Part shown: piece after piece, positions 34,934 through 56,245 of the stretch
Layout of the letters: each line of letters starts with the position of its first letter
Numbering within the stretch: the first letter of the stretch is position 1
NCBI GenBank assembly: GCA_032250735.1
Contig: JAVVEP010000009.1
Span: forward strand, 32,334 to 96,333
DNA length: 64,000 bases
Source: Gammaproteobacteria bacterium
Lineage (GTDB): Bacteria > Pseudomonadota > Gammaproteobacteria > SZUA-152
Reading direction: 5' to 3'
Position numbers and translations under genes: made by a program
Notes under the pieces: generated by a model
The model's input: the letters and a program-made list of their open reading frames with translations, nothing else
Databases searched by the model: none
Told to the model about the DNA's origin: nothing

Positions 34934-35047
34934 GCGCATGGAAAGGATACCCTTCAATCAAGACACGCTGAGAATACATCCGTGTACGCTCGACAGCAGC
35001 ATCCTTGCTGCTGACGGTCTTGATTGAAGGGTATCCTTTCCATGTGA
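34934..35047. mobile_element. MITE-like element, copy 1 (~108 bp core with 27-bp perfect terminal inverted repeats CATGGAAAGGATACCCTTCAATCAAGA)
   Basis: Intergenic between sbcB and the PP2C gene. Near-identical copy at 50708-50815 with the internal segment inverted. Confidence 0.7.
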
Positions 35048-35092: not shown

Positions 35093-35827
35093 TTAATCCG
35101 CGGTTGAAACGGTGTCCTCTGCGGGGCCTGCCACCAGCAACACCGTGATGTTATCCGCACCACCATTATCCAGTGACTTCTGAATCAGCAGGTCAGTTTT
35201 CTGCTTTTCATTGAGTTCCAGACCCAGAATTTCGGCAATCTCCGCATCGGAAACCTCACCCGTCAGGCCATCACTGCATAACAGCAACTGTTGTCCCTGA
35301 CACAGCCTTCCCTGCACGCGGCCGACCTGCATGGTCTGCAAATCCGACATGCCGATGGCCTGGGTGATGTAATTGCGCTGCGGATGCACCCGCGCCTCGG
35401 CCAGTGTGATGCTGCCATCATCCACCAGCGCCTGCACCAGGGAATGATCCTTGGTGATCTGGGTCAATGCGGTGCCGTCCCAGAGATAGGCGCGGCTGTC
35501 GCCCACCCAGACGATTTCAAAGTTTTCCTGATCCATTTTCAGGGCGAGTGCGGTAGAGCCCATGCCCGGCTTTCCTTCACCCCGATCCGCCGCCTTGCGT
35601 ACGGCATGGTGCGCCTGTACCAGGGCATCCGCCATCGGCCGCCCCGCACGAATTTCGGCGCACACGCACTCCACCACGATGCGGCTGGCGATCTCCCCGC
35701 CCTCATGGCCACCCATACCATCGGCCAGCACACCAAAGTTATACTCAGTATCGATGCAATAGGCATCTTCATTGTGCTGCCTCACATTACCGACGTGAGT
35801 CAGATGACCGCAATTCCTGAATGCCAT
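35093..35827 (-). CDS. PP2C-family Ser/Thr protein phosphatase
   Basis: HVGNVRQHNEDA, LADGMGGHEGGEIAS metal-binding motifs, DNITVLLV C-terminal motif. Confidence 0.88.
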   Translation of the reverse strand: MAFRNCGHLTHVGNVRQHNEDAYCIDTEYNFGVLADGMGGHEGGEIASRIVVECVCAEIRAGRPMADALVQAHHAVRKAADRGEGKPGMGSTALALKMDQENFEIVWVGDSRAYLWDGTALTQITKDHSLVQALVDDGSITLAEARVHPQRNYITQAIGMSDLQTMQVGRVQGRLCQGQQLLLCSDGLTGEVSDAEIAEILGLELNEKQKTDLLIQKSLDNGGADNITVLLVAGPAEDTVSTAD

Positions 35828-35875: not shown

Positions 35876-37966
35876 TCAGGGCCGATCGAACAACCGATAG
35901 GCCTGACTGTCAATAAACACCTCCACTAACAGTGGATCAATCTTGCCGTGCGCGGCCTCATGCTTGAGGAGATCCAGCGCCTTGTCGACACTGAGGCTCC
36001 GTTTGTAGGGCCGATCCCCCGCCGTTAAGGCATCAAAAATATCGGCCACAGTCATCACCCTCGCCGGGATCGGAATCTCGTCCCCCTTCAGGCCCTGCGG
36101 ATAACCGCTGCCATCCAGCTTTTCGTGATGGGCGTGGGCAATATCCGCCACCGCGGCCAGCGATCCCGTCCAGGGAATATGGCTCAGGAAGGAAAAGGTA
36201 TGACTGACGTGTGACTGAATATCCAGCCGCTCATCGGGTGTCAGACTGCCGCGGGCCAGGGTCAACGCCTCAAACTCCGCCGTATTGAGCAAAGCCACAG
36301 CCTCGCCCTGTTCACCGGGAAATACGAAATCGGCGACCGCCTGTAGTTCGCCGTTGACCTGATCATCAATCACCGACGGTTCATTGGCGTGTCTGATGAT
36401 CGCCATGAAACGTTGCAGGCGTCCCGCCTCCAGTTTCAATCGCGCCTCCACCGCGCCCCGGTGCCGCCTGAACTCGGCCGGCGACAGCTCACTGTGCTGA
36501 TAAACCAGTTCGCGATAGGCCTGCCGCTCCAGACTCGCCCGCGCATAACGGAATCTTTCCTGCAAAACGTCCAGCTGCGAATGATACAGCTTTCGGGCCT
36601 TGATCAGCACATGTTCCCGCACCCCCACCTTGCCAAAGTCATGCAGCAGGGCCGCGTAGCGCAGTTCCCGGATTTGCTCCAGGCTAAAGCGGATATCACG
36701 CAGCGCCTGATGCTGGCTACCATCCACCGCCTGCGCCAGGCGCTGGGAATATTCCGCCACCCGAAACGAATGCCCCGCCGTGGCGGGATCGCGTTCCTCA
36801 ATGGCGTGTACCGAGGCCGTTACAAAACCCTCGAACAGCTGTTCAATATCTTCGTAGAGGCCAAAATTCTTGAGCGCGACCGCGACTTGCGCGCCGATGC
36901 CGGTCAGGATCTGCAGGTCTTCCTGGTCAAATGAATGCGTCTGGCGATGGGTGTCGATCTGGATCAAACCGATGACCTCGGCCTCCACCAGCAAGGGCAC
37001 GCACATCACGCTACGCAGCCCCAGCTGCGAGATAGACTCTTGCCCCTTAAAGCGCTGATCATCCATCACATCGGTGGAAAGAATACTGCGCCGCTGTCCG
37101 ACCACCTCGTCAACGATGACCTCGGACAGCACCAGCACCGTGTTCTCCGCGCCGGGCGTGCGGGTCGAGGCGGCCGCCGGATGAAACCCGGCCACCCCCT
37201 CGCCACGCCTGTCGCGCAGCACCACAAAGGCCCGTTCTGCGGTGGGGAAGATGTCAAAAATCACCGCCATGATCCTGGCAAACAGGGCCTCCCGGCTGCT
37301 CTCCGTACCCAGCCCAATACTGACCTGCACCATGGCGCGCAGGCGTCGCAGCAGCTGGCTGTTGCTCTCGGTGGTATCGGTCTGCGCGATATGCAGCTGT
37401 TCCATCACCTCGGAGACATCCAGCACGGCGCTGATCTCCGGTGAGGTCATTTCGGGGGCGCGAAACAGCATCGAGACATCTGCCGCCCTCTCACCGTCTG
37501 CATTGGCGGGAGTGAGGGAGAAATCAAAAAACTCCTCATTGCGCCCGATCTCGGAGGGATAGTCGGAGGAATAACCTGAGGAACGCTCCGAGGAACCCGG
37601 CGCCTGCGCCACGGCAGCGGGACGAAAACGTAGATAGACCCCGCCGACCTGAATATTGCTGCCATCACGCAACACATAGGGGGTACCGGGGGTCAGCCGA
37701 AAGGCATTCAGAAACGTGCCATTGGTCGAGTGCGTATCTTCCAGATAAAACCGACCATTGCTCTGAAATATCCGCGCGTGGTACCGGCTGACCCGGCTAT
37801 CCGACAGGCCGATGCTGTCTTCGGGCAGACTGAAATCCTCGTCATTGCGACCGATGAGGGTTTCCGCCGCCAGCGTGAAATACCGCTGTGCCGGGGCGCC
37901 ACCGCGCACCTCCAGGTAGGCCGATGCCGGTCGTCGGGGTACCGCGTCGGTCATGTGTGTCATCAT
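35876..37966 (-). CDS. FHA-GAF-HD-GYP multidomain protein (putative phosphothreonine-regulated c-di-GMP phosphodiesterase)
   Basis: N-terminal FHA (RVSRYHARI...DTHSTNGTFLN), central GAF, C-terminal HD-GYP (ALLHDFGKV, HHEKLDGSGYPQG). Confidence 0.8.
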   Translation of the reverse strand: MMTHMTDAVPRRPASAYLEVRGGAPAQRYFTLAAETLIGRNDEDFSLPEDSIGLSDSRVSRYHARIFQSNGRFYLEDTHSTNGTFLNAFRLTPGTPYVLRDGSNIQVGGVYLRFRPAAVAQAPGSSERSSGYSSDYPSEIGRNEEFFDFSLTPANADGERAADVSMLFRAPEMTSPEISAVLDVSEVMEQLHIAQTDTTESNSQLLRRLRAMVQVSIGLGTESSREALFARIMAVIFDIFPTAERAFVVLRDRRGEGVAGFHPAAASTRTPGAENTVLVLSEVIVDEVVGQRRSILSTDVMDDQRFKGQESISQLGLRSVMCVPLLVEAEVIGLIQIDTHRQTHSFDQEDLQILTGIGAQVAVALKNFGLYEDIEQLFEGFVTASVHAIEERDPATAGHSFRVAEYSQRLAQAVDGSQHQALRDIRFSLEQIRELRYAALLHDFGKVGVREHVLIKARKLYHSQLDVLQERFRYARASLERQAYRELVYQHSELSPAEFRRHRGAVEARLKLEAGRLQRFMAIIRHANEPSVIDDQVNGELQAVADFVFPGEQGEAVALLNTAEFEALTLARGSLTPDERLDIQSHVSHTFSFLSHIPWTGSLAAVADIAHAHHEKLDGSGYPQGLKGDEIPIPARVMTVADIFDALTAGDRPYKRSLSVDKALDLLKHEAAHGKIDPLLVEVFIDSQAYRLFDRP

Positions 37967-38197
37967 CTGTTGTCACCCTGTTGTCCTGTGGCCAGGCGCG
38001 AGGTCAGTTGACCTTGCGCGGCGTTACTTGTGCGGCGTTCATTGTCGAAGAATAATCGACCCACCGTCGAACGCGTAGCGACGGCCCGATCATCCACCTA
38101 CGGCAACCCTGTAAACTGATGTTTTTCATAATATTAAATCGTTATACTCAATCCGGCCTGCCCGATACAGCCCGCGCCGTTGAATTCAGTGATTTTA

Positions 38198-38382
38198 CTC
38201 AGAGCCTGTGAAAGAACCGTTGGCCGTAGCGAGGGCGTCGATTTTCGAGCGAAACAAGGCGCGCACCATGAAAACAAGGGAGTTTGGTGGACCAAATGAC
38301 CGCCGTTTTCATGGTGCGCAACGCCGTTGCAGCCGAAAAGCGACGTCCGCAGTAGGTCGACGATTTTTTCACAGGCTCTCAG
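38198..38382. repeat. 185-bp nested imperfect inverted repeat in a 537-bp divergent intergenic region
   Basis: Outer 16-bp inverted repeat (CTCAGAGCCTGTGAAA / TTTCACAGGCTCTCAG). Inner perfect 15-bp inverted repeat (GCGCACCATGAAAAC / GTTTTCATGGTGCGC). Central TTTGGTGGACCAAA palindrome. The arms are about 70-75% complementary. Confidence 0.65.
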
Positions 38383-38503
38383 GCATATCAGCCCGATTCG
38401 CGTATACTAAAAACCCTCTCCTGGAGATGGATATTGGCACACTGACTACGTTTATTGTCGCGTCACACACAATTCGATAACACATCGCACAAAAGGCCAT
38501 GCC

Positions 38504-38998
38504 GTGGATAACAACACTTTAAAGGTTCCGAAAAAACTCCGCCCGGTCACCCTCTGGGTTCATCCGGAGGGTCGCGTGATTGGCGCGATCTATCTGCGCA
38601 CGCAAAGCCCGCACCATGCCGGCAGCGAACAGCCACTGGAGGCACTGAATCTGTGTCAGAGTTTTCTGGTCTTTAATCGTGACGAGGCACCCGAGTTGCG
38701 ATTTTATAACATCAAATCGGTGACCCGCGTTGAATATGAGGCCACCGAGGAGGACCAGCAGGCTACCAAAACCAATCCCATGCGTTGCCACTTGCAGTTA
38801 ATGGATGGCGCCTATATCGCCGGCACGATACGCGAATCACTGCCACCGAATCATGCCCGCCTGCTGGACTACCTGAATCGTGCGGATGAAACCTTCATCA
38901 AGATTCATATAGATGACGGACTGATCTACCTCGTCAATAAATCCTACATCAACCATGTCCAGGTCGATCAGCTCGGTGATGACGAGGGAGAGGGCTAG
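38504..38998 (+). CDS. Hypothetical 164-aa protein, first gene of the kinase / PilT-like operon arm
   Basis: Clean ORF 57 nt upstream of the kinase gene. No confident motif. A PilZ-like region (DGAYIAG) is speculative. Confidence 0.45.
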   Translation: MDNNTLKVPKKLRPVTLWVHPEGRVIGAIYLRTQSPHHAGSEQPLEALNLCQSFLVFNRDEAPELRFYNIKSVTRVEYEATEEDQQATKTNPMRCHLQLMDGAYIAGTIRESLPPNHARLLDYLNRADETFIKIHIDDGLIYLVNKSYINHVQVDQLGDDEGEG

Positions 38999-42671: not shown

Positions 42672-43760
42672 ATGAGCCGCGTCGACGCCTTTCTGGAGCT
42701 GCTGGTCAAACAGTCCGGCTCCGACCTGCACCTGGTTTCAGGCAATCCCCCGCGGATACGCCTGTACGGCGAGATCCACCCCATCAAATACCGCGAACTG
42801 ACCGAGAGCGAAACCGAAGACCTGCTGTTCGAGATCATGCCGCAACGGGTCAAAACGGTGTTGGCCGAAAAGGGCGGGGCCGATTTTTCCTACCAGCTGC
42901 CCGATGTGGCCCGTTTTCGCGTCAATGTGTTTCGCCACCTCGGCGGCATTGGCGCGGTGTTCCGGGCCATCCCCAACCAGATCACGCCCCTGGAGGAGCT
43001 GCGCATGCCGGCGGTGCTGAAGACCCTGGCCCGCCAGCGCAAGGGGCTGATTCTGGTGGCCGGCCCCACCGGCTCGGGCAAATCCACCACCCTCGCGGCG
43101 ATCATCGACTTCATCAATCGGGAGCGCAAAGGCCACATCATCACCATCGAAGACCCGGTGGAACACCTGCACAGCAACAAGACCTGCCTGATGAGCCAGC
43201 GGGAGCTGGGCGATCACACCGAGGGCTTCGCCCAGGCGCTGCGTTCCGCCCTGCGCGAGGACCCCGACGTGATCCTGGTGGGAGAAATGCGCGACCTGGA
43301 GACCATCAGCCTGGCCGTGACCGCCGCCGAGATGGGTATCCTGATCCTCGCGACCCTGCACACCAATGGCGCCGCCGCCGCCATCGACCGGATCATCAAC
43401 GTCTTCCCGCCGGGCGAAGAACCCTATATCCGCACCATGCTGTCCACCTCGCTGTGCGGGGTGATCTCCCAGCAACTGGTAAAAACGGCCGATAATCGTG
43501 GCAGACTTGCAGCGGTAGAGACTCTGATTAATAATTCCGCTGCGTCGAACATGATCCGCGAGGGGAAAACCGAGCAGCTGGAGAACGTGATTCAGGCCGG
43601 GGCGCTACAGGGGATGCAGACGATCGACACCGCGCTACGCCGCCTGCTCGATGAAAAATTGATTACCGGCGAAGAGGCCTACCGAAAGGCCCGCCAGAAA
43701 TCAAACTTTGAACAATATAGGGAACACGATGAATCACTCAAGCCGATCACCCGCCAATGA
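42672..43760 (+). CDS. PilT/PilU-family type IV pilus retraction ATPase, paralog 2
   Basis: GPTGSGKSTT, TIEDPVE, DVILVGEMRDLETI, ASNMIREGK. 2 nt after the previous stop. Confidence 0.85.
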   Translation: MSRVDAFLELLVKQSGSDLHLVSGNPPRIRLYGEIHPIKYRELTESETEDLLFEIMPQRVKTVLAEKGGADFSYQLPDVARFRVNVFRHLGGIGAVFRAIPNQITPLEELRMPAVLKTLARQRKGLILVAGPTGSGKSTTLAAIIDFINRERKGHIITIEDPVEHLHSNKTCLMSQRELGDHTEGFAQALRSALREDPDVILVGEMRDLETISLAVTAAEMGILILATLHTNGAAAAIDRIINVFPPGEEPYIRTMLSTSLCGVISQQLVKTADNRGRLAAVETLINNSAASNMIREGKTEQLENVIQAGALQGMQTIDTALRRLLDEKLITGEEAYRKARQKSNFEQYREHDESLKPITRQ

Positions 43761-44541
43761 CAGACGGACCCATGCACCGGTCTCCCTCCACAGCGGGCGG
43801 GATGCGGCCTCTCCCGGCGTGTCGCCGGAAGCGGGACAGGTCGGTGACGTCGCCGCCCGCGCCCCTGAGGCGCGGCGTCGACTGATCCTCACCCTGGAAG
43901 GCAAGATCATCCGCGAAATTCCCGTTACCGGCCGTCCCATCAGCATCGGGCGCAAACATGACAACGACATTCAGCTGAATGACCTGACCCTGAGCGGACG
44001 GCATGCGCAGATCTCCAGCGTGCCCGATTATGTCTTTATCGAAGACCTGGGCAGCACCAACGGCACCCTGGTCAACGGCAATCACGTGAAGAAGGTGGCG
44101 CTGGAACACGGCGACATTGTCCAGATCGGCCACCACCAGTTGACCTATATGCAGGAGTCGGAGAACAGCTACGAACCCACCATGTTCATCAAGGCCGAAT
44201 TCGACGAGACGCAGTTCATCTATGCCGACGACATCGCCACCCACGTGGTCAAGGGACTGCCACTGGGCGGATTCCGGACCGTGGGTGGCCCCGGCACAAA
44301 GTGTGTGATGGAGCTGCGTAAAACCTACAACACGATCGGCTTTCAGGGTAAGCGCGTGGCACTGATCACCCGTGGCACCGGCGGCTATTACATCACCTCC
44401 GTTGCCGGCACCCGCAGTCGTAGAACCTCCGACATACCCCTGCTGAACAATGCCGTTATCAACACCGAACTGACGCTGCTAAAGGAAAACGACATTATCA
44501 ACATCGCCGGCTTTGAGGTGCAGTTTTATTTTTTAAACTAG
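43708..44541 (+). CDS. FHA-domain protein (N-terminal FHA, uncharacterised C-terminal domain), paralog A
   Basis: FHA: ISIGRKHDNDIQLNDLTLSGRHAQI...EDLGSTNGTLVNG. The C-terminal domain is shared with the next ORF. The start is ambiguous (43708 or 43729) and overlaps the ATPase end. Confidence 0.75.
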   Translation: MNNIGNTMNHSSRSPANDRRTHAPVSLHSGRDAASPGVSPEAGQVGDVAARAPEARRRLILTLEGKIIREIPVTGRPISIGRKHDNDIQLNDLTLSGRHAQISSVPDYVFIEDLGSTNGTLVNGNHVKKVALEHGDIVQIGHHQLTYMQESENSYEPTMFIKAEFDETQFIYADDIATHVVKGLPLGGFRTVGGPGTKCVMELRKTYNTIGFQGKRVALITRGTGGYYITSVAGTRSRRTSDIPLLNNAVINTELTLLKENDIINIAGFEVQFYFLN

Positions 44542-44677
44542 CTGCCCGAGTTAAACGCCGAGTCCAGTCTGTGAGCCCAGAGTTGCAACCAGAACCAGCC
44601 TCAAACCCGACTCACCGAAATTCAACCATGCCACATAAGAAAGTGTGGCGAGCTGAACCTCGCAAGGATTTGCACGC

Positions 44678-45355
44678 ATGAACAGTAAACTCATCCTGAC
44701 CCTGGATGGCGAAATCATCAATGAATATGCGCTCGATCGCGCACATCTCAGCATTGGCCGGAAACACGGTAATGACATCCAGCTCAATGACCTGACCGTC
44801 AGTGGCCGTCATGCCATGATCAGTTCATCACTGCCGGAGCAGGTGTTTGCCGAAGACCTGGGCAGCACCAACGGCACCCTGGTCAATGGCAATCACATCA
44901 AAAAGACCTCGCTGCAACACGGCGACATCATTCAGGTGGGACACCACCAGTTCACGTTTCTGAATGAGGGCGAGGCCCGCTATGAGCCCACCATGTTTAT
45001 CAAGGCCGAGTTGGATGATACGCAGATGGTATTGCCCGACTGGGAGTCCCGCGCCGAGACCATCAAGGGTCAGCCGCTGGCGGGTCTACGAACCTTGAAC
45101 GGTCCCCTTGCCCGTACCGTGATGGAACTGCGTAAACCGTTCAGTACCCTCGGCTTCCAGGGCCACAAACTGGCGCTGATCAGCCGGGGCTTAAACAGCT
45201 ATTCCATCAGCCCGGTGCATGCCTCCAAGCATCGCCGCGGCACAGACACCCCCTTACTCAACGGCGAACCTCTTGGTGCATTGCCCGTCGAGCTCAAGCC
45301 CGACGACACCATCAGCATCGCCGGCTTTGAAGTGGCGTTTTATTACATCCATTAG
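44678..45355 (+). CDS. FHA-domain protein, paralog B (same architecture as 43708-44541)
   Basis: FHA: LSIGRKHGNDIQLNDLTVSGRHAMI...EDLGSTNGTLVNG. Conserved C-terminus TMFIKAE.D.TQ...MELRK...GFQG...ISIAGFEV.FY. Confidence 0.78.
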   Translation: MNSKLILTLDGEIINEYALDRAHLSIGRKHGNDIQLNDLTVSGRHAMISSSLPEQVFAEDLGSTNGTLVNGNHIKKTSLQHGDIIQVGHHQFTFLNEGEARYEPTMFIKAELDDTQMVLPDWESRAETIKGQPLAGLRTLNGPLARTVMELRKPFSTLGFQGHKLALISRGLNSYSISPVHASKHRRGTDTPLLNGEPLGALPVELKPDDTISIAGFEVAFYYIH

Positions 45356-45472: not shown

Positions 45473-46933
45473 CTATTTTGCGTACGGATTGGCACCCGCC
45501 GGCAGGGTCTGTTGCGCGGAGGATTTCTGCATTGCCGGCACCTTGTTCGCCGTCACAATTTCTATCGAGCGCAGCGACTCCAGCTCCGCGATACTGGCCT
45601 CGAGCGACACCGCCTCGGTAATACCTTGTTGCAGGAATTCGGATAACTGCGGATACAGCGCCACCGCCTCATCAACACGCGCATCGCTGCCCGGTCGGTA
45701 GGCGCCAACGCTAATGAGATCCCGGTGCTGACGGTAGGTTGAATACCACTGCTTGAACTGACGCGTGGCATCCTGGTGTTCCGGCGTGGTGATCTCCGTC
45801 ATGGCGCGACTGATGGAGGCCTCGACATCAATCGCAGGATAGTGGCCGGAATCCGCCAGCTCACGTGACAACACGATATGCCCATCGAGAATCGCACGCG
45901 CCGCATCCGCAATCGGGTCCTGCTGATCATCCCCCTCCGTCAACACGGTATAGAATGCCGTGATCGAACCACCGCCCGTATCACCGTTACCGGCCCGCTC
46001 CACCAGCTGCGGAATTTTCGCAAACACAGAAGGTGGATAACCTTTAGTAGCCGGTGGCTCGCCAATCGCCAGTGCCACCTCACGCTGTGCCTGGGCATAG
46101 CGCGTCAGGGAGTCCATCAACAAAAGTACATTGAGTCCCTGGTCCCGGAAATATTCCGCGATACGTGTCGCCAGGGTGGCGCCATGCAGGCGTAAAACCG
46201 GGGCGTCATCCGCCGGTGATGCCACCACCACGGCGCGCGACATGCCTTCCTCGCCCAGAATGTTTTCAATGAATTCCTTGACTTCGCGACCGCGTTCACC
46301 GATCAGCCCAACCACGATCACATCCGCCGTGGTGTATTTTGTCATCATGCCAAGCAGCACGCTTTTACCCACACCACTACCCGCAAACAGACCCATGCGT
46401 TGACCGCGCCCCACACTCAACAGGGCATTGATCGCACGGATACCTACATCCAGTTTCTCGCGAATCGGCTGCCGCGCCAGCGGATTGATGGCACGCCCCG
46501 CCAACGGCACACGGTCACTGGTGCTGATGGCCCCCTTCCCGTCCAGAGGATTGCCCGCGCCGTCCAGCACGCGCCCCAATAGTTCAGGGCCGACGGCGAC
46601 ATCATATACTTCCTTGCTGGGCACAACGCGGGCGTTTGGCAGAATGCCGTGCATGCGCCCGACGGGCATTAAATAGAGTTTTTCACCGGAAAACCCGACC
46701 ACCTCTGCCTCGATGTCCGTACCGTCAGGCCCCTCCACCAGGCAGCGCGAACCCACAGGGGCATGGCAACCAACGGCCTCCAGGGTGAGGCCGACCATCC
46801 GCGTCAGATGGCCTTCGACGATCAGCTTTGGACGATCAACCAGCCGCTCCACCGCGGCAAGACGTTTGGCCCACAGCCCACTGCGGTTGACCGCACTGAG
46901 CGTGTCATCACTGTCATGGATGGAGTCGCCCAT
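45473..46933 (-). CDS. fliI: Flagellum-specific ATPase FliI
   Basis: Walker A GSGVGKS, T3SS ATPase fold. The ORF is open to 46975; the start is set at the ATG at 46933 to avoid running into fliH. Confidence 0.9.
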
Positions 46934-46940
46934 CGCTCGG

Positions 46941-47624
46941 TTATTCGTCGTCCGCCGGCGCGGCAGGTGTCGCATCGCGGCCCCGCGCGTCGGCCAGCAA
47001 CGGCGCGACCACCGCAGTCAGTCGCTTTTCCAGCGTCGCCTCAATCTGCGACACCCTGGTGAGAATTCTGCAATCACCACGCATCAGGCTGGGGTCTTCC
47101 ACCAACGACCAGTTTTGGTCGGCGCCTGACTGCGCGATCGACTCACGCATCAGCAGCACATCATCCGGGTGCAGACAGACTTTGACATCCTGTGAACCGA
47201 TGGGGAGCACCGCCAGGGCCTCGCGAACCACACCGACGACCTGGCCTGGGTCCGCCTTGAGCTCACGCCGCACCAACTGTCTGGCAATAGACAGCGCAAG
47301 GCTTACCAGCTGCTGTTCAACCGCTTCATCCAGCCGATCAAGCGGATGACTGAGTGAATCGAGCATCGTGGTTAATAATTTTTCCTTGGTGGCGATTTCC
47401 GCCTTGCCGGATGCCATGCCTTCCTGCCGGCCCTTCTGAAAACCGGCATCGTATGCTTCCTTGTAGGCCTGCTTCTGAATACGTTCGATCTGCTCTGCCG
47501 TCATCAGGCCCGGCGCCTTGCCATGACGGGCATCCTTTACGGCGGCGGAGACATCTTCAACGATCGGCAGATCCCAGCATTCAAAGCCGTGCGCAGCATC
47601 GCGGGGTATTACCCTGGAGGTCAT
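46941..47624 (-). CDS. fliH: Flagellar assembly protein FliH
   Basis: Position between fliG and fliI. FliH-like coiled-coil plus C-terminal domain. Confidence 0.8.
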
Positions 47625-48637
47625 TACACGTACTCCTCGCCACCCGAACCACCGAGCGCAATATCACCGGCATCCGCCAGACGGCGGGCAACGGAAAGTA
47701 TTTCTTTCTGTGCGCCCTCCACTTCACTCAGGCGCACCGGGCCCTTCGCCTCAAGGTCGTCACGCAGCATTTCGGCCGCGCGTTTTGACATGTTGCGGAA
47801 AATCTTCTCCTTCAGTTCATCATCCGTTCCCTTGAGGGCAAGCACCAGCGACTCGGATGAGATCTCCCGCAGAATGGTCTGGATATCACGGTCATCGACG
47901 GCATTGAGGTTGTCAAACACAAACATCAGGTCCTGAATATTCTGACCCAGGTCGGCATCGATCTCCTTCACGCTGTCCATCAGTTCACCTTCCAGCGCAC
48001 TATCGATGAAGTTGAGAATATTTGCCGCTGCCTTGATGCCGCCAACGCTGGACGATTTGACATTGTTCTTGCCGGTAAACTGTTTCTCCATAATGTCATT
48101 CAGCTCATTCAGCGCAGCTGGCTGGATGCCATCCAGCGTGGCGATACGCATCAGCACGTCAACGCGAATCTTTTCGGGAAACAGCGACAGCACTTCGGCG
48201 GACTGGTCGGGCTCAAGATAGGACAGCACAATGGCAATGATCTGCGGATGCTCCAGACGAATAATCTCGGCAACCGCCCGCGAGTCCATCCACTTGAGGG
48301 TTTCCAGACCTTTGGTATTTCCACCCTGTAAAATCCGATCGATGATATTATCCGCCTTGTCATCGCCCAACGCCTTTCTCAGCACCGTGCGCACATATTC
48401 GTCCGTGCCCAGGCCCAGACCGGTCTCTTCCAGGACCGTGGTGCAGAATTCGTTCAGCACCGACGTCACCTGGCCGCGGGTTACATTCTTTAGCTGCGCC
48501 ATCGCTGCACCCAGGGTTTGCACCTCCTTGGGGTCCATGTGTTTCAACACTTCCGAGGCCGACGCCTCACCGAGACTCATTAACAGTATCGCGGCACGAT
48601 CAACACCACGTACCTCATTATTTTTTTGATCAGCCAT
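47624..48637 (-). CDS. fliG: Flagellar motor switch protein FliG
   Basis: AAILLMSLGE..., torque-generating C-terminal domain. Canonical position. Confidence 0.9.
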   Translation of the reverse strand: MADQKNNEVRGVDRAAILLMSLGEASASEVLKHMDPKEVQTLGAAMAQLKNVTRGQVTSVLNEFCTTVLEETGLGLGTDEYVRTVLRKALGDDKADNIIDRILQGGNTKGLETLKWMDSRAVAEIIRLEHPQIIAIVLSYLEPDQSAEVLSLFPEKIRVDVLMRIATLDGIQPAALNELNDIMEKQFTGKNNVKSSSVGGIKAAANILNFIDSALEGELMDSVKEIDADLGQNIQDLMFVFDNLNAVDDRDIQTILREISSESLVLALKGTDDELKEKIFRNMSKRAAEMLRDDLEAKGPVRLSEVEGAQKEILSVARRLADAGDIALGGSGGEEYV

Positions 48638-50273
48638 CCGATGCCACCCAGTTTTTAACAACCTGCGCCACTAGTTTTGGATCCTGCTCAACGGCCGCGT
48701 TTGCCGTTAGCAGATTTTGCTCATAACTGCCCGGCGCCTTGATGGCGAGGTTTTCGGGTTTCGCACCCAGCGTCAGCGTATCGTCAGACATCGCCCGTTC
48801 ATTATTACCAAATGCAGCGACCGGCATCATCTTGGACTGGGTGGCCAGCTGCCTCAGGATAGGCTTGAGCACACCGAACAATAACAACATCACCAACAAT
48901 GCACCCAGGGATTTCTTGGCAACATCCTGCGCCCAGCCCTGCTCCCAGAGAGGCACTTCCGGTAGCTCTTCCGGCGTAACAGGCATGGTGAAGGATGAAT
49001 TCATGATGTTCAGGGTATCACCACGCTGGGCATTAAAGCCGACCGCCTCCTTGACCAGATTGCTCAGTCGATCCAGCTCTTCCGGCGTGCGCTGTGTCCG
49101 GGTCAACGAACCATCGGCCGCCGTTATCAGGGAATCATCCACCACCACGGCGACTGAGAGGCGGCGGAGACGCCCCATGGAAAAACGGGTATGGCTGATC
49201 GTCTTGTCCAGTTCGTAGTTTTTGATTTCCTTGCGATGCGAGTTGCTGGAACCATTTGCGCCGCCGTTAACGCCACCCTCGACACCCCCATTGACAAGCT
49301 CTGGTGCGGTCGCCGCGCCCGGAGGCTGGTTGGACAAGGCACCAGGAATCCCGCCATTCATGCTGCCACCCGATGACTGCTCGACCAGGGTCTGATTACT
49401 CCGCAGGGCCGGGGTATCCGGGTTAAAGCTCTCCTGGGTCTGCTCACTCATGGTGAAATCGATATCCGCGGTCACCTGTGCGCGAACGGACTCCGAACCC
49501 AGAATCGGTGTGAGCAGGCGCTCGATGCGATCGATATAACTGTTTTCCAGCCGGCTGGCATACTCAAACTGTGCGCCGGTCTTTGCCATCTTCTGGGTCG
49601 ATTCACCACGCGACAGCAGGTTGCCTCGTTGGTCCACGATAGTGACGTTCGAGATATTCATATCCGCAACACTGGATGAGACCATGTGCATAATCGATGA
49701 CACCTGCCCTTCATCCAGGTTTCTTCCCGGAAACAGGTTGACCACCACGGAGGCACTCGCATTCTTTCGATTGCGCACAAACACTGACTGCTGTGGCACC
49801 GCCAGATGCACTCTGGCATTTTTGACATTGCTCAGGCTGGAGATGGTCCGCGCCAGTTCAATCTCCAGCGCGCGCTGGTAACGCGCCTTTTCCATAAATT
49901 GCGAAACGCCAAAATTATTTTTTTCGTCCAGCGCGTCAAAACCGGCACTCACGCCTTTTGGCAGTCCCATCGACGCCAGCTTGATTCGTGCATCATGAAT
50001 ACTGCTGGTGGGCACCAGAATCGCCCCTGTCGCCTGATCCAGTTTTGCCTCAAACCCGTTCTGCTGAAGTGCATCCAGCACCGTGCTGACATCCTGCTCT
50101 TCAAGCGCGCCGTACAGCACGCCAAAACTGGGCGCCCATGACCAGAGCACAATCGTAACGCCCAGGGCGACGCTGGCGGCAAGGCCCAGCATGATCCCGA
50201 TCTGTCGGAAGGCATGCAGGCCACTCAAACCAGTGAACCCCGCGGATACTTCTTCGGCTTTTACCAGTGCCAT
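48630..50273 (-). CDS. fliF: Flagellar M-ring protein FliF
   Basis: 547 aa, two TM helices, secretin/YscJ-like domain. Canonical position. Confidence 0.9.
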   Translation of the reverse strand: MALVKAEEVSAGFTGLSGLHAFRQIGIMLGLAASVALGVTIVLWSWAPSFGVLYGALEEQDVSTVLDALQQNGFEAKLDQATGAILVPTSSIHDARIKLASMGLPKGVSAGFDALDEKNNFGVSQFMEKARYQRALEIELARTISSLSNVKNARVHLAVPQQSVFVRNRKNASASVVVNLFPGRNLDEGQVSSIMHMVSSSVADMNISNVTIVDQRGNLLSRGESTQKMAKTGAQFEYASRLENSYIDRIERLLTPILGSESVRAQVTADIDFTMSEQTQESFNPDTPALRSNQTLVEQSSGGSMNGGIPGALSNQPPGAATAPELVNGGVEGGVNGGANGSSNSHRKEIKNYELDKTISHTRFSMGRLRRLSVAVVVDDSLITAADGSLTRTQRTPEELDRLSNLVKEAVGFNAQRGDTLNIMNSSFTMPVTPEELPEVPLWEQGWAQDVAKKSLGALLVMLLLFGVLKPILRQLATQSKMMPVAAFGNNERAMSDDTLTLGAKPENLAIKAPGSYEQNLLTANAAVEQDPKLVAQVVKNWVASDG

Positions 50274-50328
50274 AATTGACCTTTACCCATCATTAATGAT
50301 TACGAATTTGACAACATTACCGGCTACG

Positions 50329-50649
50329 CTAAACCTGCATTGCCATGATTTCCTTGTAGGCGCCCAACAGTTTATTTCTAACCTGAAGCGTCGCCTCAAA
50401 GGCGATGCCCGATTTCTGTTTCGCGATCATCACCTCGGCAAGGCTGACGGCTGGATCACCCATCACAAAGGCATCGCCTAGCCGCCCGGCCTCCTGCTGG
50501 ACTTCATTGACACTGTTGATGCTCTTCATCAGCATTGAACTAAAGTCACTGCCGGCGGGGCCACTCTCCTGTAGTTGCGGCGTACCCTGCGCCGCCGCGG
50601 CCATGGCCCGCATCTGGGTGATCAATTGACTGGTATCGATTTCATTCAT
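50329..50649 (-). CDS. fliE: Flagellar hook-basal body protein FliE
   Basis: 106 aa with FliE C-terminal motif (AEVMIAKQKSGIAFEATLQVRNKL). Confidence 0.88.
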   Translation of the reverse strand: MNEIDTSQLITQMRAMAAAAQGTPQLQESGPAGSDFSSMLMKSINSVNEVQQEAGRLGDAFVMGDPAVSLAEVMIAKQKSGIAFEATLQVRNKLLGAYKEIMAMQV

Positions 50650-50707
50650 CGTTGTTCTCCTACTTCAATATACAGGAAGCTGATTACCGCTTTTTACTAA
50701 CAAGGCG

Positions 50708-50815
50708 CATGGAAAGGATACCCTTCAATCAAGACCGTCAGCAGCAGGGATGCTGCTGTCGAGCGTACACGGATGTATTCTCAGCGCGTCTTGATTGAAG
50801 GGTATCCTTTTCATG
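50708..50815. mobile_element. MITE-like element, copy 2 (same 27-bp terminal inverted repeats as copy 1, 1 mismatch in one repeat; internal region in opposite orientation)
   Basis: Intergenic between fleR and fliE. The flanks also resemble those of copy 1 for about 15 bp. Confidence 0.7.
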
Positions 50816-50850
50816 TGATGCAATAATAATTCATTACAAAAAAGCAAAAT

Positions 50851-52212
50851 CTATGCCGTTTCCGCCCCATAACGCCCGGGAACGGTCATGCCGATTTCCC
50901 GCATTCGTGCCAGTTTGTAACGCAGGGTCCGCTGGCTGATCCCCAGCTTGTCGGCGGCCGTTTGCCGATTGCCGTGATCGGCCTGCAGCACGGCCAGAAT
51001 TCTGTTGTATTCATGATTCTTCATTTCATTGCCCAGCGTGCTTGGCTCGCCGTTACCCATCACATCCAGGCCAGCCTCATCGGCCGACAGGTTTTCAAAC
51101 TGCACATCACTGGCGGTGATCTTGTCGCCGTTACTCAGTATCAGGGCGCGCTGCACGACGTTGTCCAGCTCACGCACATTGCCGGGCCATTGATGCGCCA
51201 TCAGGCGCTCACACGCCGCGGTGGTTAGCTCCGGCAACGGTGCCTGGCTGGACTGAAAGTGTTTCTCGATAAGCTTCCTGCTCAGCGGCAGGATGTCACC
51301 GGTACGCTCACGCAAGGCGGGAATCTGGATGGGGAATACATTCAGGCGGTAAAACAGATCTTCGCGAAAACGGCCTTCGTTGACCTCGGTGCGCATCAGG
51401 CGGTTGGACGTCGCCAGTACGCGGACATCCAGCGCCATGGTTTTCTGTCCACCCAGGCGTTCCACCTCCCGCTCCTGCAGGACCCGCAGCAGCTTTGCCT
51501 GCAGGGCCGCATCCATTTCCGAGATCTCGTCCAGCAATAACGTGCCGCCCTGGGCCAGTTCGAACTTTCCCGGGCAGGCCTTGTAGGCCCCGGTGAAGGC
51601 GCCCTTCTCGTAGCCGAACAACGTGGCTTCCAGCATGTTCTCGGGGATCGCGGCACAGTTGATCGCGACAAAGGGTTTGTCCGCACGCGATGAATTGTTG
51701 TGAATGAATCGCGCCAGCACCTCTTTGCCGACGCCACTTTCACCGGTCAGCATGATGGTGGCATCACTCTCGGCCACCCGTCGTACCAGTTCCACCAGCT
51801 CCTTACTGCGCAGATCCTCGGCGACCATCGTGTCGGTCGCGATATTGCGTGTGCCGACATAGCGGCTCACCATGGTGGCCAGCACTTCGGCCTCGAAGGG
51901 TTTGCTCAGATAATCCACAGCACCATCGCGCATCGCCTCAACGGCCATCTGAATGGAACCATAGGCGGTCATTAACATCACCGGCAGATCCTGCCATTGC
52001 GCCTTGATCTGCTTCAGCAGCTCATGGCCATCCATGCCGGGCATCTGGATGTCGGTAATCACCATATCCACCATTTTCCGGCGGAGGATTTCCAGGGCCT
52101 CGACACCATCGTTCGCGGTCTCGGTGCCATAACCCGCCAGTGCCAGGGTATCGCACAGCGCGATCTGCAAATCCGCATCATCTTCAACCACGAGTATTAC
52201 TGCTTGAGTCAT
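50851..52212 (-). CDS. fleR: Sigma-54-dependent flagellar response regulator FleR/FlrC
   Basis: REC (ILVVEDDADL...DIQMPGMDG), AAA+ sigma-54 activator (GESGVGKE, GAFTGA-type ESELFGHEKGAFTGA), C-terminal HTH. Confidence 0.9.
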   Translation of the reverse strand: MTQAVILVVEDDADLQIALCDTLALAGYGTETANDGVEALEILRRKMVDMVITDIQMPGMDGHELLKQIKAQWQDLPVMLMTAYGSIQMAVEAMRDGAVDYLSKPFEAEVLATMVSRYVGTRNIATDTMVAEDLRSKELVELVRRVAESDATIMLTGESGVGKEVLARFIHNNSSRADKPFVAINCAAIPENMLEATLFGYEKGAFTGAYKACPGKFELAQGGTLLLDEISEMDAALQAKLLRVLQEREVERLGGQKTMALDVRVLATSNRLMRTEVNEGRFREDLFYRLNVFPIQIPALRERTGDILPLSRKLIEKHFQSSQAPLPELTTAACERLMAHQWPGNVRELDNVVQRALILSNGDKITASDVQFENLSADEAGLDVMGNGEPSTLGNEMKNHEYNRILAVLQADHGNRQTAADKLGISQRTLRYKLARMREIGMTVPGRYGAETA

Positions 52213-52236
52213 ACAACCTCCTGAAATTCGGGCGTG

Positions 52237-53430
52237 CTAATTTTGTATGCCGGCGATCGGCAGCTGAACAATCGGCAGTTGAACAATGAAACGGCTTCCC
52301 TGGCCTTCGATCGAGTCCACCCGCACGCTGCCTCCATGAGCGCGTGCCACTGCCTGCACAACCGCCAGGCCAAGGCCGGTGCCGTCATTACGGGTGGTGA
52401 AAAAGGGCTTAAACAGGTCTTTCTGAATATGCTTGGGGATGCCAGGGCCGTCGTCGATGACCGACAGCTCCACGGTGTCGCCCATGCCGTCATCGGCATG
52501 CAGGTGTAGCGTTCCCTGTTTGCCGATGGCCTGAATCGCGTTGTTGGCAAGATTCAGCAATGCGCTGCCGAGAATGCGGGGATTGCCTTTGACCTGGCGG
52601 TCCGGCGTGTCACTGCTGACCACCAGCGTGATATCACGCTGTTCGCACATGGCCGCCACCGCGCTGGAGAGATCCGTCAATAGCGCCTGCAGGCTGATGC
52701 TTTCCTCGCCGCTGTAGCCGGAACGTGAAAACATCAGCATGTCGGTGATCAGTGCCTCGAGCTGACGCAGCTGGCCCATGACCTTGTCCACAATGCGGGA
52801 GCGATGCGCGTTATCGAGGTGGGAATTTTTGAGCTGGGCGGCAAACAGCAGGCTGGATGCCAGGGGGGTGCGGATCTGATGGGCCAGGCCCGCGGCCATT
52901 TCACCCATGGCAATCAGCCGCTGGTGTTGGCCCAGGTGTTCCTGCAATTCACGGGTCTCGGTGAGATCGGTAATCAGCAGCACCTGGCCGGGCTGGCCGT
53001 CACTCAGGGGGCAGGTGGAAATGCTGGCGCGCCGGCCGTCACGTAATGAGATCTCATGGCCATCATCGGAACGCGGCGCAAACACCCGGGCGATAACCGT
53101 GGCCCAGCTCTCGCCCTGCAACGGCTCACCCAGCAACTGTCTGGCGGCGGGATTACACTCGCTGATACAGCCGGCCCCATCCAGCACCACCACGCCGGCT
53201 GGCAGGGCGGTGAGGATCGCATCCAGGCGTGCGGCCCGGAAGGCCACTTCACCCGAGGTGTTGGCGGCCTCCTGGGCCCGTGACTGTTGGGTATTGCTGA
53301 GCTCGCTGTGCAGCTGGGTTACGCTGTCTTCGAGCTGGTGATAGGACGCTTCCAGGTGTTCGGAAACGCGATTGAATATCCGGAAACTCTCTTCCAGGTC
53401 CTGGATGTGTTGTGCTTGAGTCGATGCCAT
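52237..53430 (-). CDS. fleS: Flagellar sensor histidine kinase FleS/FlrB (PAS, HisKA, HATPase)
   Basis: PAS region, H-box AHQIRTPLAS, G boxes DDGPGIP, GTGLGLAV. Confidence 0.88.
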   Translation of the reverse strand: MASTQAQHIQDLEESFRIFNRVSEHLEASYHQLEDSVTQLHSELSNTQQSRAQEAANTSGEVAFRAARLDAILTALPAGVVVLDGAGCISECNPAARQLLGEPLQGESWATVIARVFAPRSDDGHEISLRDGRRASISTCPLSDGQPGQVLLITDLTETRELQEHLGQHQRLIAMGEMAAGLAHQIRTPLASSLLFAAQLKNSHLDNAHRSRIVDKVMGQLRQLEALITDMLMFSRSGYSGEESISLQALLTDLSSAVAAMCEQRDITLVVSSDTPDRQVKGNPRILGSALLNLANNAIQAIGKQGTLHLHADDGMGDTVELSVIDDGPGIPKHIQKDLFKPFFTTRNDGTGLGLAVVQAVARAHGGSVRVDSIEGQGSRFIVQLPIVQLPIAGIQN

Positions 53431-53510
53431 GACACGCCTTGCCTTTCAGTAACAAACTGTCTGTGTTTGAAGGGGTGGCCAAAAGCCGCCGCCGGGTTTC
53501 ATCACAGAAA

Positions 53511-53526
53511 AGCAAATTGCGTGCCT
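53511..53526 (-). promoter_or_regulatory. Sigma-54 (-24/-12) promoter match upstream of fleS
   Basis: Minus-strand sequence aGGCACgcaatTTGCt, matching TGGCAC-N5-TTGCW. About 80 nt upstream of the fleS start. Confidence 0.55.
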
Positions 53527-53580
53527 AAATTACGACTTCCTTAATTATCAATAAGTTATAACCGGATGGATTTTGCCGGG

Positions 53581-55020: not shown

Positions 55021-55202
55021 CGTCTCCTCCCCGGATAAGACCACTTACCGCTAAAAATTGTGTGAATCTCGAATTCGCGGGTAAGTTATACACCATATCC
55101 TGATAATGTCAAAATACTGGCGCTGTCTTTATATAAAAAAAGGGGTGTAAAAACGGGGGCCTAGCGGATATTGCTCGACCGAGTCGGGAACTTTGCGCGG
55201 TA

Positions 55203-55766
55203 TCAGCTTTCGCTTGCGCTGCGCGACAGGGCAATGGCGCGGCGATGCTGGCGAAAGATCAGCTTGTCGAACTGTGCCTGCACCAGTCCACCCTGAGGGT
55301 GCAACGCCACCGAAAAACCGGTCTCCGTCGTCGTGGACACACTCCCATACAGCACCAGGGCCTGCGGGAAACGGGTATCCAGAAACAGCCGCAGCCGCAG
55401 CAGATCGCCCGCACCCGGCACACTCGGGGGCCTTAGCTCGGTCAGCGACAAGGCGTGACTGGAGATCGTCACCACCGCGACCTCCGGTATCTTCGCCTGC
55501 TGATGCAGCAATTCGCCCAGCATGCCGAGGATGAGATCCAGTTTGGCATCCAGGTGGGAGGACTCGGTCAGGGCCTGGGGGGATTTCTCCAGATCGTGCG
55601 GGATTTCTTCGAGGACATTCAGCGCGTTCAGCAGACGTAAATTGGCACTGGCGGTTTGCGATTGGGTACGGTCAAGCGGCAGCGACGGGATTTTGCACCA
55701 GTCAACAGGCACCACTGCCTGAAACCTTATTCCATCCGAGAGCGCCTGGGTGTGATCGTCTGACAT
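55203..55766 (-). CDS. Hypothetical protein in the fliS-fleQ interval (flagellar-cluster accessory protein)
   Basis: ORF lying between fliT-like and fleQ genes. No recognisable motif. Confidence 0.45.
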   Translation of the reverse strand: MSDDHTQALSDGIRFQAVVPVDWCKIPSLPLDRTQSQTASANLRLLNALNVLEEIPHDLEKSPQALTESSHLDAKLDLILGMLGELLHQQAKIPEVAVVTISSHALSLTELRPPSVPGAGDLLRLRLFLDTRFPQALVLYGSVSTTTETGFSVALHPQGGLVQAQFDKLIFRQHRRAIALSRSASES

Positions 55767-55918
55767 GCGCTGAAGGGTAAACAGGCGGATTCGAAAACAC
55801 AAGTCTGCGCTACAGCAGTGAAAGCTAGTGCTTTGGGAGTGCGAAGTTGGGGCGGTGTCGCATCCACGTCTTTTTTGCACCACAGTAGATGCCGACGTGG
55901 CAGACGATGATGCAGTCG

Positions 55919-56245
55919 TTACCGGATTCCATCGTTACCGGAGGTTGAGTCCTGGATAGTCTGATAAGCCGTATTGGCCTTGCCTGAGGTCTGCATCAGC
56001 AGAATCGCCTGTTGCAACACCGGCATCTGGGCCTGTACCAGGCTCTGGGTTTGTTCATCCAGCGCAAGCACTTCCCTTGCAAGCGCGATCCTGCCGGAAA
56101 TACCCTGTGCAAAAATCTCATTAAACAGCGGGAGTCTGGATTGTTCGAGCTTGGTCAATTGATCCCAATCACCGCTTGTGGCGCACTGCAACATCTCGCG
56201 CGACAGACTGAGCAGACATTCATCGGGAGTGAGCGTAGATTCCAT
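55919..56245 (-). CDS. fliT: FliT-like flagellar export chaperone
   Basis: About 108 aa, helical, GDWDQL...LEQSRLPLF pattern like FliT. Position downstream of fliS. Confidence 0.55.
   Translation of the reverse strand: MESTLTPDECLLSLSREMLQCATSGDWDQLTKLEQSRLPLFNEIFAQGISGRIALAREVLALDEQTQSLVQAQMPVLQQAILLMQTSGKANTAYQTIQDSTSGNDGIR

Follow-up and report, generated by a model that had tools for sequence, protein, structure and literature searches.

In this work, we have analysed a 64,000-nucleotide stretch of a Gammaproteobacteria bacterium genome (contig JAVVEP010000009.1, positions 32,334 to 96,333), called here the window, in whose numbering all coordinates are given. Within it lies a gene (35876-37966) whose product joins an FHA, a GAF and an HD-GYP domain. 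Our results indicate that this product is a seemingly active enzyme for the degradation of cyclic di-GMP (c-di-GMP), fused to a domain that binds phosphothreonine (pThr). Since the relatives that bear the FHA domain almost always adjoin a Ser/Thr kinase gene, the enzyme probably couples kinase signalling to second-messenger breakdown. We propose that a phosphothreonine pathway formed by a Hanks-type kinase and a PP2C phosphatase controls the output of a binuclear HD-GYP c-di-GMP phosphodiesterase, a proposal to which we give an even chance of being right. The FHA-GAF-HD-GYP architecture is a real, widespread and uncharacterised variant within a known enzyme class.

The initial annotation of this DNA had placed the three domains in a single polypeptide, and both the open reading frame (ORF) and the Pfam search bear this out (Table 1). 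The FHA (aa 37-108, E 3.5e-18), GAF (aa 225-365, E 2.9e-15; GAF_2 3.5e-15, GAF_3 8.1e-9), HD (aa 397-514, E 2.9e-14) and HD_5 (aa 568-678, E 1.2e-35) matches all score above the curated Pfam cut-offs. An identical protein (100%; P0001 in our search) from a Gammaproteobacteria metagenome-assembled genome (MAG) carries the NCBI name HD domain-containing phosphohydrolase. Conservation was read from an alignment of 57 FHA-bearing homologues (43-100% identity), and an AlphaFold2 (AF2) model was built from the same alignment, with a mean predicted local distance difference test score (pLDDT) of 77.

The best solved relative of the enzyme is PmGH (PDB 4mcw; phmmer E 3.8e-33, Foldseek E 2.7e-14). We mapped its residues through the HMMER alignment to 4mcw and took their roles from two published studies (PMC4159591; bioRxiv 10.1101/2021.11.05.467447). 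The PmGH residues D183, H189, H221/D222, K225, H250, H276/H277, D305 and D308, which are needed for or contribute to activity (PMC4159591), correspond here to D393, H399, H442/D443, K446, H586, H613/H614, D642 and D645, while Y285 corresponds to Y622 and R314/K317 to R652/K655. Thus all seven core metal ligands (H399, H442, D443, H586, H613, H614 and D642) are present together with the D393/K446 pair, and the protein belongs to the HD-GYP class by its HD dyad (H442-D443) and its H613-H614-E615-K-L-D618-G-S-G621-Y622-P623 motif. The motifs that had been quoted earlier are therefore found, at H442-D443 and at H611-AHHEKLDGSGYPQG-625, and alignment, by which degeneracy of the HD-GYP domain would have been revealed, shows them intact: with the exception of K655, the mapped catalytic residues show either no variation or a conservation of at least 98% across the 57 homologues.

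What would such an enzyme hydrolyse? The guanine-recognition motif R652-P-Y654-K655 is kept, its alignment columns holding R in 56 sequences, Y in 56, and K, R or Q in 43, 13 and one, respectively. The RxYK motif is guanine-specific and is considered largely responsible for the specificity for c-di-GMP (bioRxiv 10.1101/2021.11.05.467447), and from its retention we argue that the substrate is c-di-GMP. The equivalent of PmGH E185 is Ala395, and the homologues carry T (19), S (18), A (8), V (8), I (3) or G (1) there, with D or E in 0 of 57. Since an acidic residue is missing from this position, the enzyme falls in the binuclear subclass and outside the trinuclear (E/D-T-G) subfamily. HD-GYP enzymes without an E185 equivalent often, although not always, halt at pGpG (bioRxiv 10.1101/2021.11.05.467447). 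Judged from these residues, the protein would be a catalytically competent, binuclear-type HD-GYP phosphodiesterase, most likely acting on c-di-GMP.

The phosphothreonine-binding residues of the FHA domain are intact. The pocket residues R40, S60, R61, H63, S80, T81 and N82 are each conserved in 54-57 of the 57 homologues, and they are equivalent to R61, S75, R76, H78, S95, T96 and N97, respectively, which form the pocket of the Bdellovibrio bacteriovorus protein DgcB (PMC6733907). The phosphate-contacting residues are identical to those of DgcB and OdhI, H63 being the buried His, and the domain aligns with the FHA domains of OdhI, GarA and DgcB (Foldseek TM 0.8-0.86, normalised to the target). 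In the AF2 model, the following linker has pLDDT values below 50 across residues 120-163. The next domain is a GAF domain both by its profile match and by the alpha/beta GAF topology of the model; it shows a weak match to the cAMP-binding GAF domain of Lcd1 (5w10), and the best structural match is again a GAF-HD-GYP protein, PmGH. A predicted 45-residue helix (aa 348-392) joins it to the HD-GYP domain.

The association with kinase genes was measured by counting neighbours within 10 kb after removal of duplicate contigs. Among all 41 FHA-bearing loci, 35 have a kinase gene, 37 another FHA gene and 17 a PP2C gene; when only the 26 loci with at least 5 kb of flanking DNA on both sides are considered, kinase and other FHA genes are found in all 26, and PP2C in 14. 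The FHA-less relatives present the opposite picture, with two kinase genes, two other FHA genes and three PP2C genes in 42 loci, and one of each in the 19 loci flanked by at least 5 kb on both sides. For the kinase counts over all loci (35/41 vs 2/42) the Fisher test gives p 8e-15, a value not corrected for phylogeny. This contrast between FHA-bearing and FHA-less relatives is the strongest evidence for a role of the FHA domain in tying the enzyme to a Ser/Thr kinase pathway, and by the counts in the well-flanked loci the enzyme is a member of a module of Hanks kinase, FHA and, in part of the loci, PP2C genes.

The initial annotation had proposed that the fusion links Ser/Thr kinase signalling to c-di-GMP turnover through phosphothreonine gating. 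None of the computational tests with the power to refute this idea went against it, and the link itself has gained ground from the intact catalytic motifs, the FHA pocket and the kinase counts (26/26 vs 1/19); gating rather than recruitment, and c-di-GMP as the substrate, are what we infer.

The FHA-bearing family is widespread. The protein database search gave 4018 matches at E<=1e-10, and FHA, GAF and HD_5 occur together in 112 of the best 120 of these 4018 matches, the other 8 being shorter (485-611 aa) and without an FHA match. The full architecture is present in about 40 of the best 80 loci from GTDB species representatives. Its carriers include Chromatiales, Ectothiorhodospiraceae and Thiohalophilus in the Gammaproteobacteria, and Massilia, Noviherbaspirillum, Herminiimonas, Pseudoduganella, Aromatoleum and Herbaspirillum sp. 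ST 5-3 in the Betaproteobacteria. The only match to the FHA fusion outside the Proteobacteria lies on an Actinomycetota MAG contig (our locus L075, 10001-11233), where an FHA-GAF part with 42% identity is cut by the contig end and has a kinase gene adjacent; either gene transfer or an error in binning may account for it.

The kinase association holds in two different types of module. In type A, found in Gammaproteobacteria and including this window, a gene for a 164-aa protein is followed by genes for a kinase with HEAT repeats, two PilT-like ATPases and one or more FHA proteins; this operon is divergent from the enzyme gene in most loci and lies downstream of it in one (L015), and PP2C often follows the enzyme. 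Type B is found in Betaproteobacteria. Its enzyme gene shows translational coupling to genes for an outer-membrane factor (OEP), an 832-aa double-FHA protein and an HlyD-like protein, and upstream there is a gene for another kind of Hanks kinase, joined in many loci by one for PP2C. A caspase/FGE-sulfatase gene was seen in the sole type-B locus examined in detail. At a type-A metagenomic locus (L090, 15652-18513), the module is followed by a third PilT-like ATPase and by an MshE-type ATPase with an MshEN domain. MshEN is a known c-di-GMP-binding domain.

A second peculiarity of the enzyme is a helical insert, some 113 residues long, within the HD-GYP domain, at which both HMMER and Pfam break the match in two. 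Like the lack of an acidic residue at the E185 position, this split had escaped the initial annotation. The canonical loop VGIPDRVLLKPGKL is replaced here by VGVREHVLIKARKL, so that the loop is not a contiguous KPG loop: K456 is invariant, the P and G positions are taken in the family by A, S or E and then by K, R or H, and about 113 residues separate K-A-R from GSLTPDERLDIQSH586. The AF2 model predicts four helices (462-491, 496-527, 534-546 and 562-569), with a beta hairpin (548-558) ahead of the last one and with mean pLDDT values (10-residue blocks) of 86-95 over the long helices and 61-82 toward the C-terminal end, and none of the solved PDB structures matched by the model in Foldseek spans the insert. 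The main-chain atoms of KPG touch the second guanine of c-di-GMP (PMC4159591; bioRxiv 10.1101/2021.11.05.467447), and the insert therefore emerges directly beside the substrate site.

All 57 FHA-bearing homologues have the insert. Moreover, 37 FHA-less relatives show the same insert consensus and the same GAF/HD-GYP/insert core, preceded in them by some 140 aa of N-terminal sequence that lacks annotation, and tblastn with the insert alone is positive in 28 of the 42 FHA-less loci; these relatives occur in Acidiferrobacterales, Gemmatimonadota, Acidobacteriota, Myxococcota, Nitrospirota, Leptospirales and others. Judged from this distribution, the insert predates the FHA fusion. Used on its own as a single query against 1.84 billion cluster representatives, it gave only 29 matches at E<=1e-3, all at the expected position and mostly in proteins of 600-700 aa or in shorter fragments; because the insert evolves too fast, these 29 matches are no census of its family. 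One Acidobacteriota MAG (L079, 5218-11197) may hold the fusion in 'split' form: there, an FHA-less gene with GAF, HD-GYP and insert is divergent from an operon whose products are PP2C, a protein with an FHA domain and one of 809 aa.

We hypothesize that signalling would proceed as follows. Some cue would activate the divergently encoded, soluble HEAT-repeat kinase, and threonines would be phosphorylated on the kinase itself or on another protein of the module. The N-terminal FHA domain of the enzyme would then dock in trans on that phosphothreonine, and docking would be relayed to the HD-GYP domain, where the helical insert may contribute, by way of the GAF domain and the long signalling helix, with the enzyme presumed to be a dimer. 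The hydrolysis of c-di-GMP would thereby be altered near an assembly of PilT-like ATPases and FHA proteins, and the PP2C phosphatase would reset the system. Docking in trans is favoured over docking in cis because many members of the family are tailless and no Thr motif is conserved in their tails or linkers. In this scheme we infer the substrate, whether regulation turns the enzyme on or off, which partner is phosphorylated, and the allosteric transmission.

Several observations weigh against this proposal. The loci behind the synteny statistic are not phylogenetically independent. PP2C is missing in about half of the related loci (it is present in 14 of the 26 well-flanked ones), and in at least one genome (L089) a five-gene kinase/PilT core exists without the enzyme, which makes the enzyme, with or without PP2C, an accessory arm of that core. 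No conserved TxxL/I/V motif was found in the N-terminal tails or linkers of the 57 family sequences, nor in the linker between the HEAT repeats and the kinase domain, which is S/T-rich and not alignable. The substitution of KPG by K-A-R/K together with the large insert suggests that substrate preference could differ from that of canonical enzymes. Finally, a motif scan of the 64-kb window showed no GGDEF motif.

A possible, if doubtful, alternative is recruitment without allostery: the enzyme would be constitutively active or regulated by a GAF ligand alone, and the FHA domain would do no more than tether it to a phosphorylated assembly of kinase, PilT-like ATPases and FHA proteins, where an active kinase would then lead to a local depletion of c-di-GMP. 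The approximately 45 residues predicted as disordered between FHA and GAF argue against rigid coupling, the three other FHA domains encoded in the module fit a phospho-dependent scaffold, and the FHA-less relatives, with the same GAF/HD-GYP/insert core, imply a core that works without FHA input. In DgcB, however, binding of a phosphopeptide by the FHA domain alters the catalytic output through a rearrangement of the dimer despite a flexible connection (PMC6733907), and in the present family conserved beta-strand and helix elements (aa 164-220), placed after the linker and before the GAF domain, could carry a signal. We consider it unlikely that the kinase phosphorylates the enzyme itself, in the tail (T3, T6) or in the linker, and that the FHA domain of the enzyme switches it by binding that site in cis or across the dimer, as occurs with GarA and OdhI or with a kinase substrate. 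This protein and its closest relatives do have Thr-rich tails (such as MMTHMTDAV, MTTHMTGAV and MTTTAPK), T6-D-A-V fits the preference for a hydrophobic residue at pT+3, and both DgcB and OdhI/GarA operate by binding a site of their own, so that a local cis mechanism using this tail (T3, T6-D-A-V) is possible. Many members, however, begin with 'MA' directly at the FHA domain, which sets the family apart from self-tail enzymes of the DgcB type, and no Thr motif is conserved in the tails or linkers of the 57 sequences; a mechanism based on the own tail cannot therefore be the conserved mode of the family, and a conserved self-phosphorylated tail as in DgcB and GarA was discarded for the lack of such a motif. 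A conserved FHA docking motif in the kinase was discarded as well: its linker is not conserved, and the docking site is therefore not predictable.

The remaining alternatives concern catalysis itself. That the altered KPG loop and the insert redirect the enzyme to a substrate other than, or besides, c-di-GMP, such as 3'3'-cyclic GMP-AMP (3'3'-cGAMP), pGpG or another cyclic nucleotide, seems to us quite improbable. The K-A-R/K that replaces the loop contacting the second base, with the insert beginning directly after it, would speak for this possibility, as would the N-terminal loop D-P-x-T-A-G-H-S, which resembles that of the cGAMP phosphodiesterase V-cGAP3 (5z7c), the second-best PDB match, and the tendency of HD-GYP enzymes without an E185 equivalent to end at pGpG (bioRxiv 10.1101/2021.11.05.467447). 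Nevertheless, the family keeps RxYK, with K, R and Q at its last position in 43, 13 and 1 of the 57 sequences, while the characterised enzymes shifted to cGAMP carry RxxQ or RxxN (bioRxiv 10.1101/2021.11.05.467447), and the Leptospira GAF-HD-GYP protein LA2847, compared here by its GAF-HD-GYP order, lowers c-di-GMP in a reporter assay. Hardly probable at all is an HD-GYP domain that serves as a non-catalytic sensor or interaction module in a protein acting purely as an adaptor. Inactive HD-GYP proteins that act via protein-protein contacts are known, and the large insert might block the active site; yet the D/K pair and all seven core metal ligands stand unchanged, or almost unchanged, across the 57 FHA-bearing sequences, and the same motifs are likewise kept in 37 FHA-less sequences from many phyla, which is the pattern expected from purifying selection on catalysis.

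Our proposal of a kinase-controlled phosphodiesterase can be extended, although we regard the extension as rather unlikely. The enzyme would serve as second-messenger arm to a module so far undescribed, with seven to eight genes that code for the small beta-rich protein, the HEAT-repeat kinase, the PilT-like pair, one or two FHA adaptors, the enzyme and PP2C, in which threonine phosphorylation and local removal of c-di-GMP switch a PilT-type motor, and in which FHA/GAF input moves the insert to open or close the active site. If true, insert-driven switching of the active site would be a regulatory principle unseen in any solved HD-GYP enzyme.

The coordinates of the enzyme, its parts and its neighbours are collected in Table 1.

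Table 1. Position in the window of the FHA-GAF-HD-GYP gene, of the regions of its product and of the genes of the neighbouring module.
Feature	Position	Strand	Basis
FHA-GAF-HD-GYP protein, 696 aa, whole gene	35876..37966	-	ATG-start ORF, translation, Pfam domains
FHA domain, aa ~17-115; pThr pocket G39 R40, S60 R61, H63, S80 T81 N82 G83	37622..37918	-	Pfam, 57-homologue alignment
FHA-GAF linker, aa 116-200; residues 120-163 predicted disordered, Ser/Thr-rich in this protein	37367..37621	-	AF2
GAF domain, aa ~223-367, then long signalling helix, aa 348-392, into HD-GYP	36866..37300	-	Pfam, AF2
HD-GYP N-terminal part, aa ~375-459: D393, A395 (PmGH E185 position), H399, H442-D443, K446, K456-A-R (KPG position)	36590..36844	-	HMMER alignment to 4mcw
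Helical insert, ~113 aa, aa 460-572, between KPG-loop position and H586 helix	36251..36589	-	Split HMMER/Pfam matches, AF2
HD-GYP C-terminal part, aa 573-690: H586, H613-H614-E615, D618, G621-Y622-P623, D642, D645, R652-P-Y-K655	35897..36250	-	Pfam HD_5, alignments to 4mcw, 5z7c, 4r8z
PP2C-type Ser/Thr phosphatase, Stp1-like, 244 aa, 48 bp downstream of enzyme gene	35093..35827	-	Pfam PP2C_2 6.8e-13
Conserved 164-aa protein, first operon gene	38504..38998	+	225 homologues, all hypothetical
Soluble HEAT-repeat Hanks-type Ser/Thr kinase, 839 aa	39056..41575	+	Pfam HEAT_2 4.6e-54, Pkinase 5.5e-52
PilT/PilU-family ATPase paralogue A, 366 aa; start overlaps kinase stop codon	41569..42669	+	NCBIfam pilT_fam 422 bits
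PilT/PilU-family ATPase paralogue B, 362 aa	42672..43760	+	NCBIfam pilT_fam 447 bits
FHA-domain protein, 277 aa; paralogue of next gene	43708..44541	+	Pfam FHA 1e-20
FHA-domain protein, 225 aa	44678..45355	+	Pfam FHA 7.6e-22

The phosphatase gene following the enzyme gene codes for a protein that scores 217 bits against the NCBIfam Stp1/IreP family, slightly below the cut-off of 230. The gap of 48 bp between the two genes contains a GGAG-like site ahead of the PP2C ATG and is free of hairpins, and the sole terminator-like match nearby is a weak 6-bp stem within the 3' end of the enzyme coding region; cotranscription of the two genes is thus plausible from the arrangement of the DNA. Just 3' of the PP2C stop codon, between this gene and that of exonuclease I (window ~34940-35045, minus strand), the DNA contains an inverted repeat, perfect over about 25 bp (ggaaaggatacccttcaatcaagac ... 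gtcttgattgaagggtatcctttcc), which is likely to be a terminator or else a repeat element.

As the initial annotation had stated, the enzyme gene and the kinase operon are divergent; the operon begins 538 bp upstream of the gene, with its first ORF at 38504. Its two PilT-like ATPases and two FHA proteins had gone unnoticed in that annotation. The intervening DNA contains a long imperfect palindrome (38196-38386) with outer arms ctcagagcctgtgaaa...ttttcacaggctctcagg and inner arms gcgcaccatgaaaac...gttttcatggtgcgc, which could be an element resembling repetitive extragenic palindromes (REP) or miniature inverted-repeat transposable elements (MITE), or a regulatory structure. The 164-aa protein accompanies the kinase in type-A loci and has no Pfam match save a faint one to DUF6812 (E 0.017). 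We considered it as a possible c-di-GMP receptor of the PilZ type and rejected this assignment, as its beta-rich AF2 model (pLDDT 84) is unlike PilZ and has no significant Foldseek match in the PDB; the best matches have E ~0.1, with a weak Sm/Hfq-like resemblance of one half only.

The kinase consists of HEAT repeats (aa ~40-480), an S/T-rich linker and a kinase domain (aa 567-835), in which the HRDLKPANIL, DFG and APE motifs are present. Both ATPases have P. aeruginosa PilT (3jvu) as their match in the PDB (the best one for paralogue A, E 8e-93; E 7e-100 for paralogue B), with an identity to it of only about 50% by eye. The AIRNLIREGK motif reads AIANLINTGK in paralogue A and AASNMIREGK in the other, which suggests a dedicated paralogous pair and not the housekeeping PilT/PilU. 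The 225-aa FHA protein is kept in the type-A loci examined (L002-L016, L038, L040, L088-L090). In both FHA proteins (43708-45355) the FHA domain is followed by a C-terminal region of about 120 aa without Pfam match, which ends like a degenerate second FHA domain (LLNG..L....L...D.I.IAGFEV.FY).

Elsewhere in the window, the motif scan detected no real EAL or PilZ gene in the 64 kb. A flagellar cluster (45473-58223), coding for FliI, FliH, FliG, FliF, FleQ and FliD as well as for a FleR-like sigma-54 regulator and a FleS-like PAS kinase, lies straight after the FHA genes. FleQ is a c-di-GMP receptor in Pseudomonas. We do not regard this adjacency as a conserved feature, as the flagellar/FleQ cluster is missing at the same position in L002, L004, L006 and L088. 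Horizontal acquisition may explain the stretch at 8000-14000, which has a low GC content (43-46%, vs 55-65% around it) and codes for a protein with a VWA domain, a receiver-TPR protein and a hybrid histidine kinase. An anti-phage defence system was also considered and rejected: PADLOC matched only generic kinase domains (PD-T4-6, mad6, PglW), with weak P-loop and PP2C matches, and gave no match for the enzyme, the 164-aa protein or the FHA proteins.

What is the significance of this family? Domain shuffling is common among signalling proteins, and the initial annotation had described this combination as rarely characterised. This is true of the literature, where our searches, which combined FHA with HD-GYP and PilT with FHA and kinase, turned up neither a paper describing an FHA-HD-GYP protein nor one on the module, but not of the genomes, in which the architecture is common; FHA is also unmentioned in the main text of a census of HD-GYP domain architectures, whose architecture table is an image. 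Work on bacterial signalling usually treats the Hanks-type kinase network and the c-di-GMP network apart from one another, and DgcB, on the side of synthesis, is the only structurally characterised direct link between a kinase and c-di-GMP that our literature searches found. The FHA-GAF-HD-GYP family offers its counterpart on the side of degradation. As the candidate kinase, the phosphatase and possible targets (the PilT-like ATPases and the FHA adaptors) are encoded next door, the pathway is directly testable, and genetic work is feasible, since members are present in cultured strains of Massilia, Noviherbaspirillum, Herbaspirillum and Aromatoleum. The insert beside the substrate loop, in turn, marks a large and unstudied HD-GYP subfamily that extends across many phyla.

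Among known systems, PmGH from Persephonella marina (PDB 4MCW/4MDZ) has the same order of GAF-like domain, signalling helix and HD-GYP domain, with the seven metal ligands, the D183/K225 pair, GYP and RxYK. Our protein can be viewed as an enzyme of the PmGH type to which an FHA input has been added. PmGH itself has no FHA domain; its iron site is trinuclear and includes E185, a position mostly taken in this family by T, S, A or V, and its KPG loop is intact and free of insert, whereas here K-A-R is followed by about 113 helical residues. The 3'3'-cGAMP phosphodiesterase V-cGAP3 of Vibrio cholerae (PDB 5Z7C, E 2.5e-30) shares with our protein the P-x-T-A-G-H-S loop, the lack of an acidic third-metal ligand and HHEKLDGxGYP, but it is a tandem HD-GYP protein without FHA, GAF or insert, and the specificity motif here is the RxYK of the c-di-GMP type. 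RpfG and other HD-GYP regulators with receiver domains also place a phosphorylation-sensing N-terminal domain in control of a C-terminal HD-GYP domain. In RpfG the input is aspartyl phosphorylation of its own receiver by a histidine kinase, whereas here it would be the non-covalent reading of a phosphothreonine made by a Hanks kinase. RpfG is tied to PilT/PilU-dependent motility in Xanthomonas.

The PpkA/PppA/Fha pathway, as it occurs in Pseudomonas, is a further parallel in its logic. In this pathway of type VI secretion (PMC3953482), a Hanks kinase, a PP2C phosphatase and FHA proteins are clustered with the ATPase-driven machine that is under their control, and an FHA domain binds phosphothreonine on a component of that machine. 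Here, in contrast, type VI secretion genes are absent, the ATPases are of the PilT/PilU type, the kinase is soluble and has HEAT repeats, and a phosphodiesterase belongs to the module. The closest parallel for the FHA fusion is DgcB, the FHA-GGDEF protein of B. bacteriovorus (PDB 6HBZ/6HC0/6HC1), which also has an N-terminal FHA domain, with the same pThr pocket, fused to a c-di-GMP-metabolising domain. Its FHA domain gates the cyclase through phosphothreonine binding, and regulation by an as yet unidentified Ser/Thr kinase has been proposed (PMC6733907). The output of DgcB is synthesis and it has no GAF domain, whereas the output here would be degradation, with a GAF domain present; its ligand is its own phosphorylated N-terminal tail (pT14), of which this family has no conserved equivalent; and, unlike in DgcB, a candidate kinase and a phosphatase are encoded here beside the enzyme.

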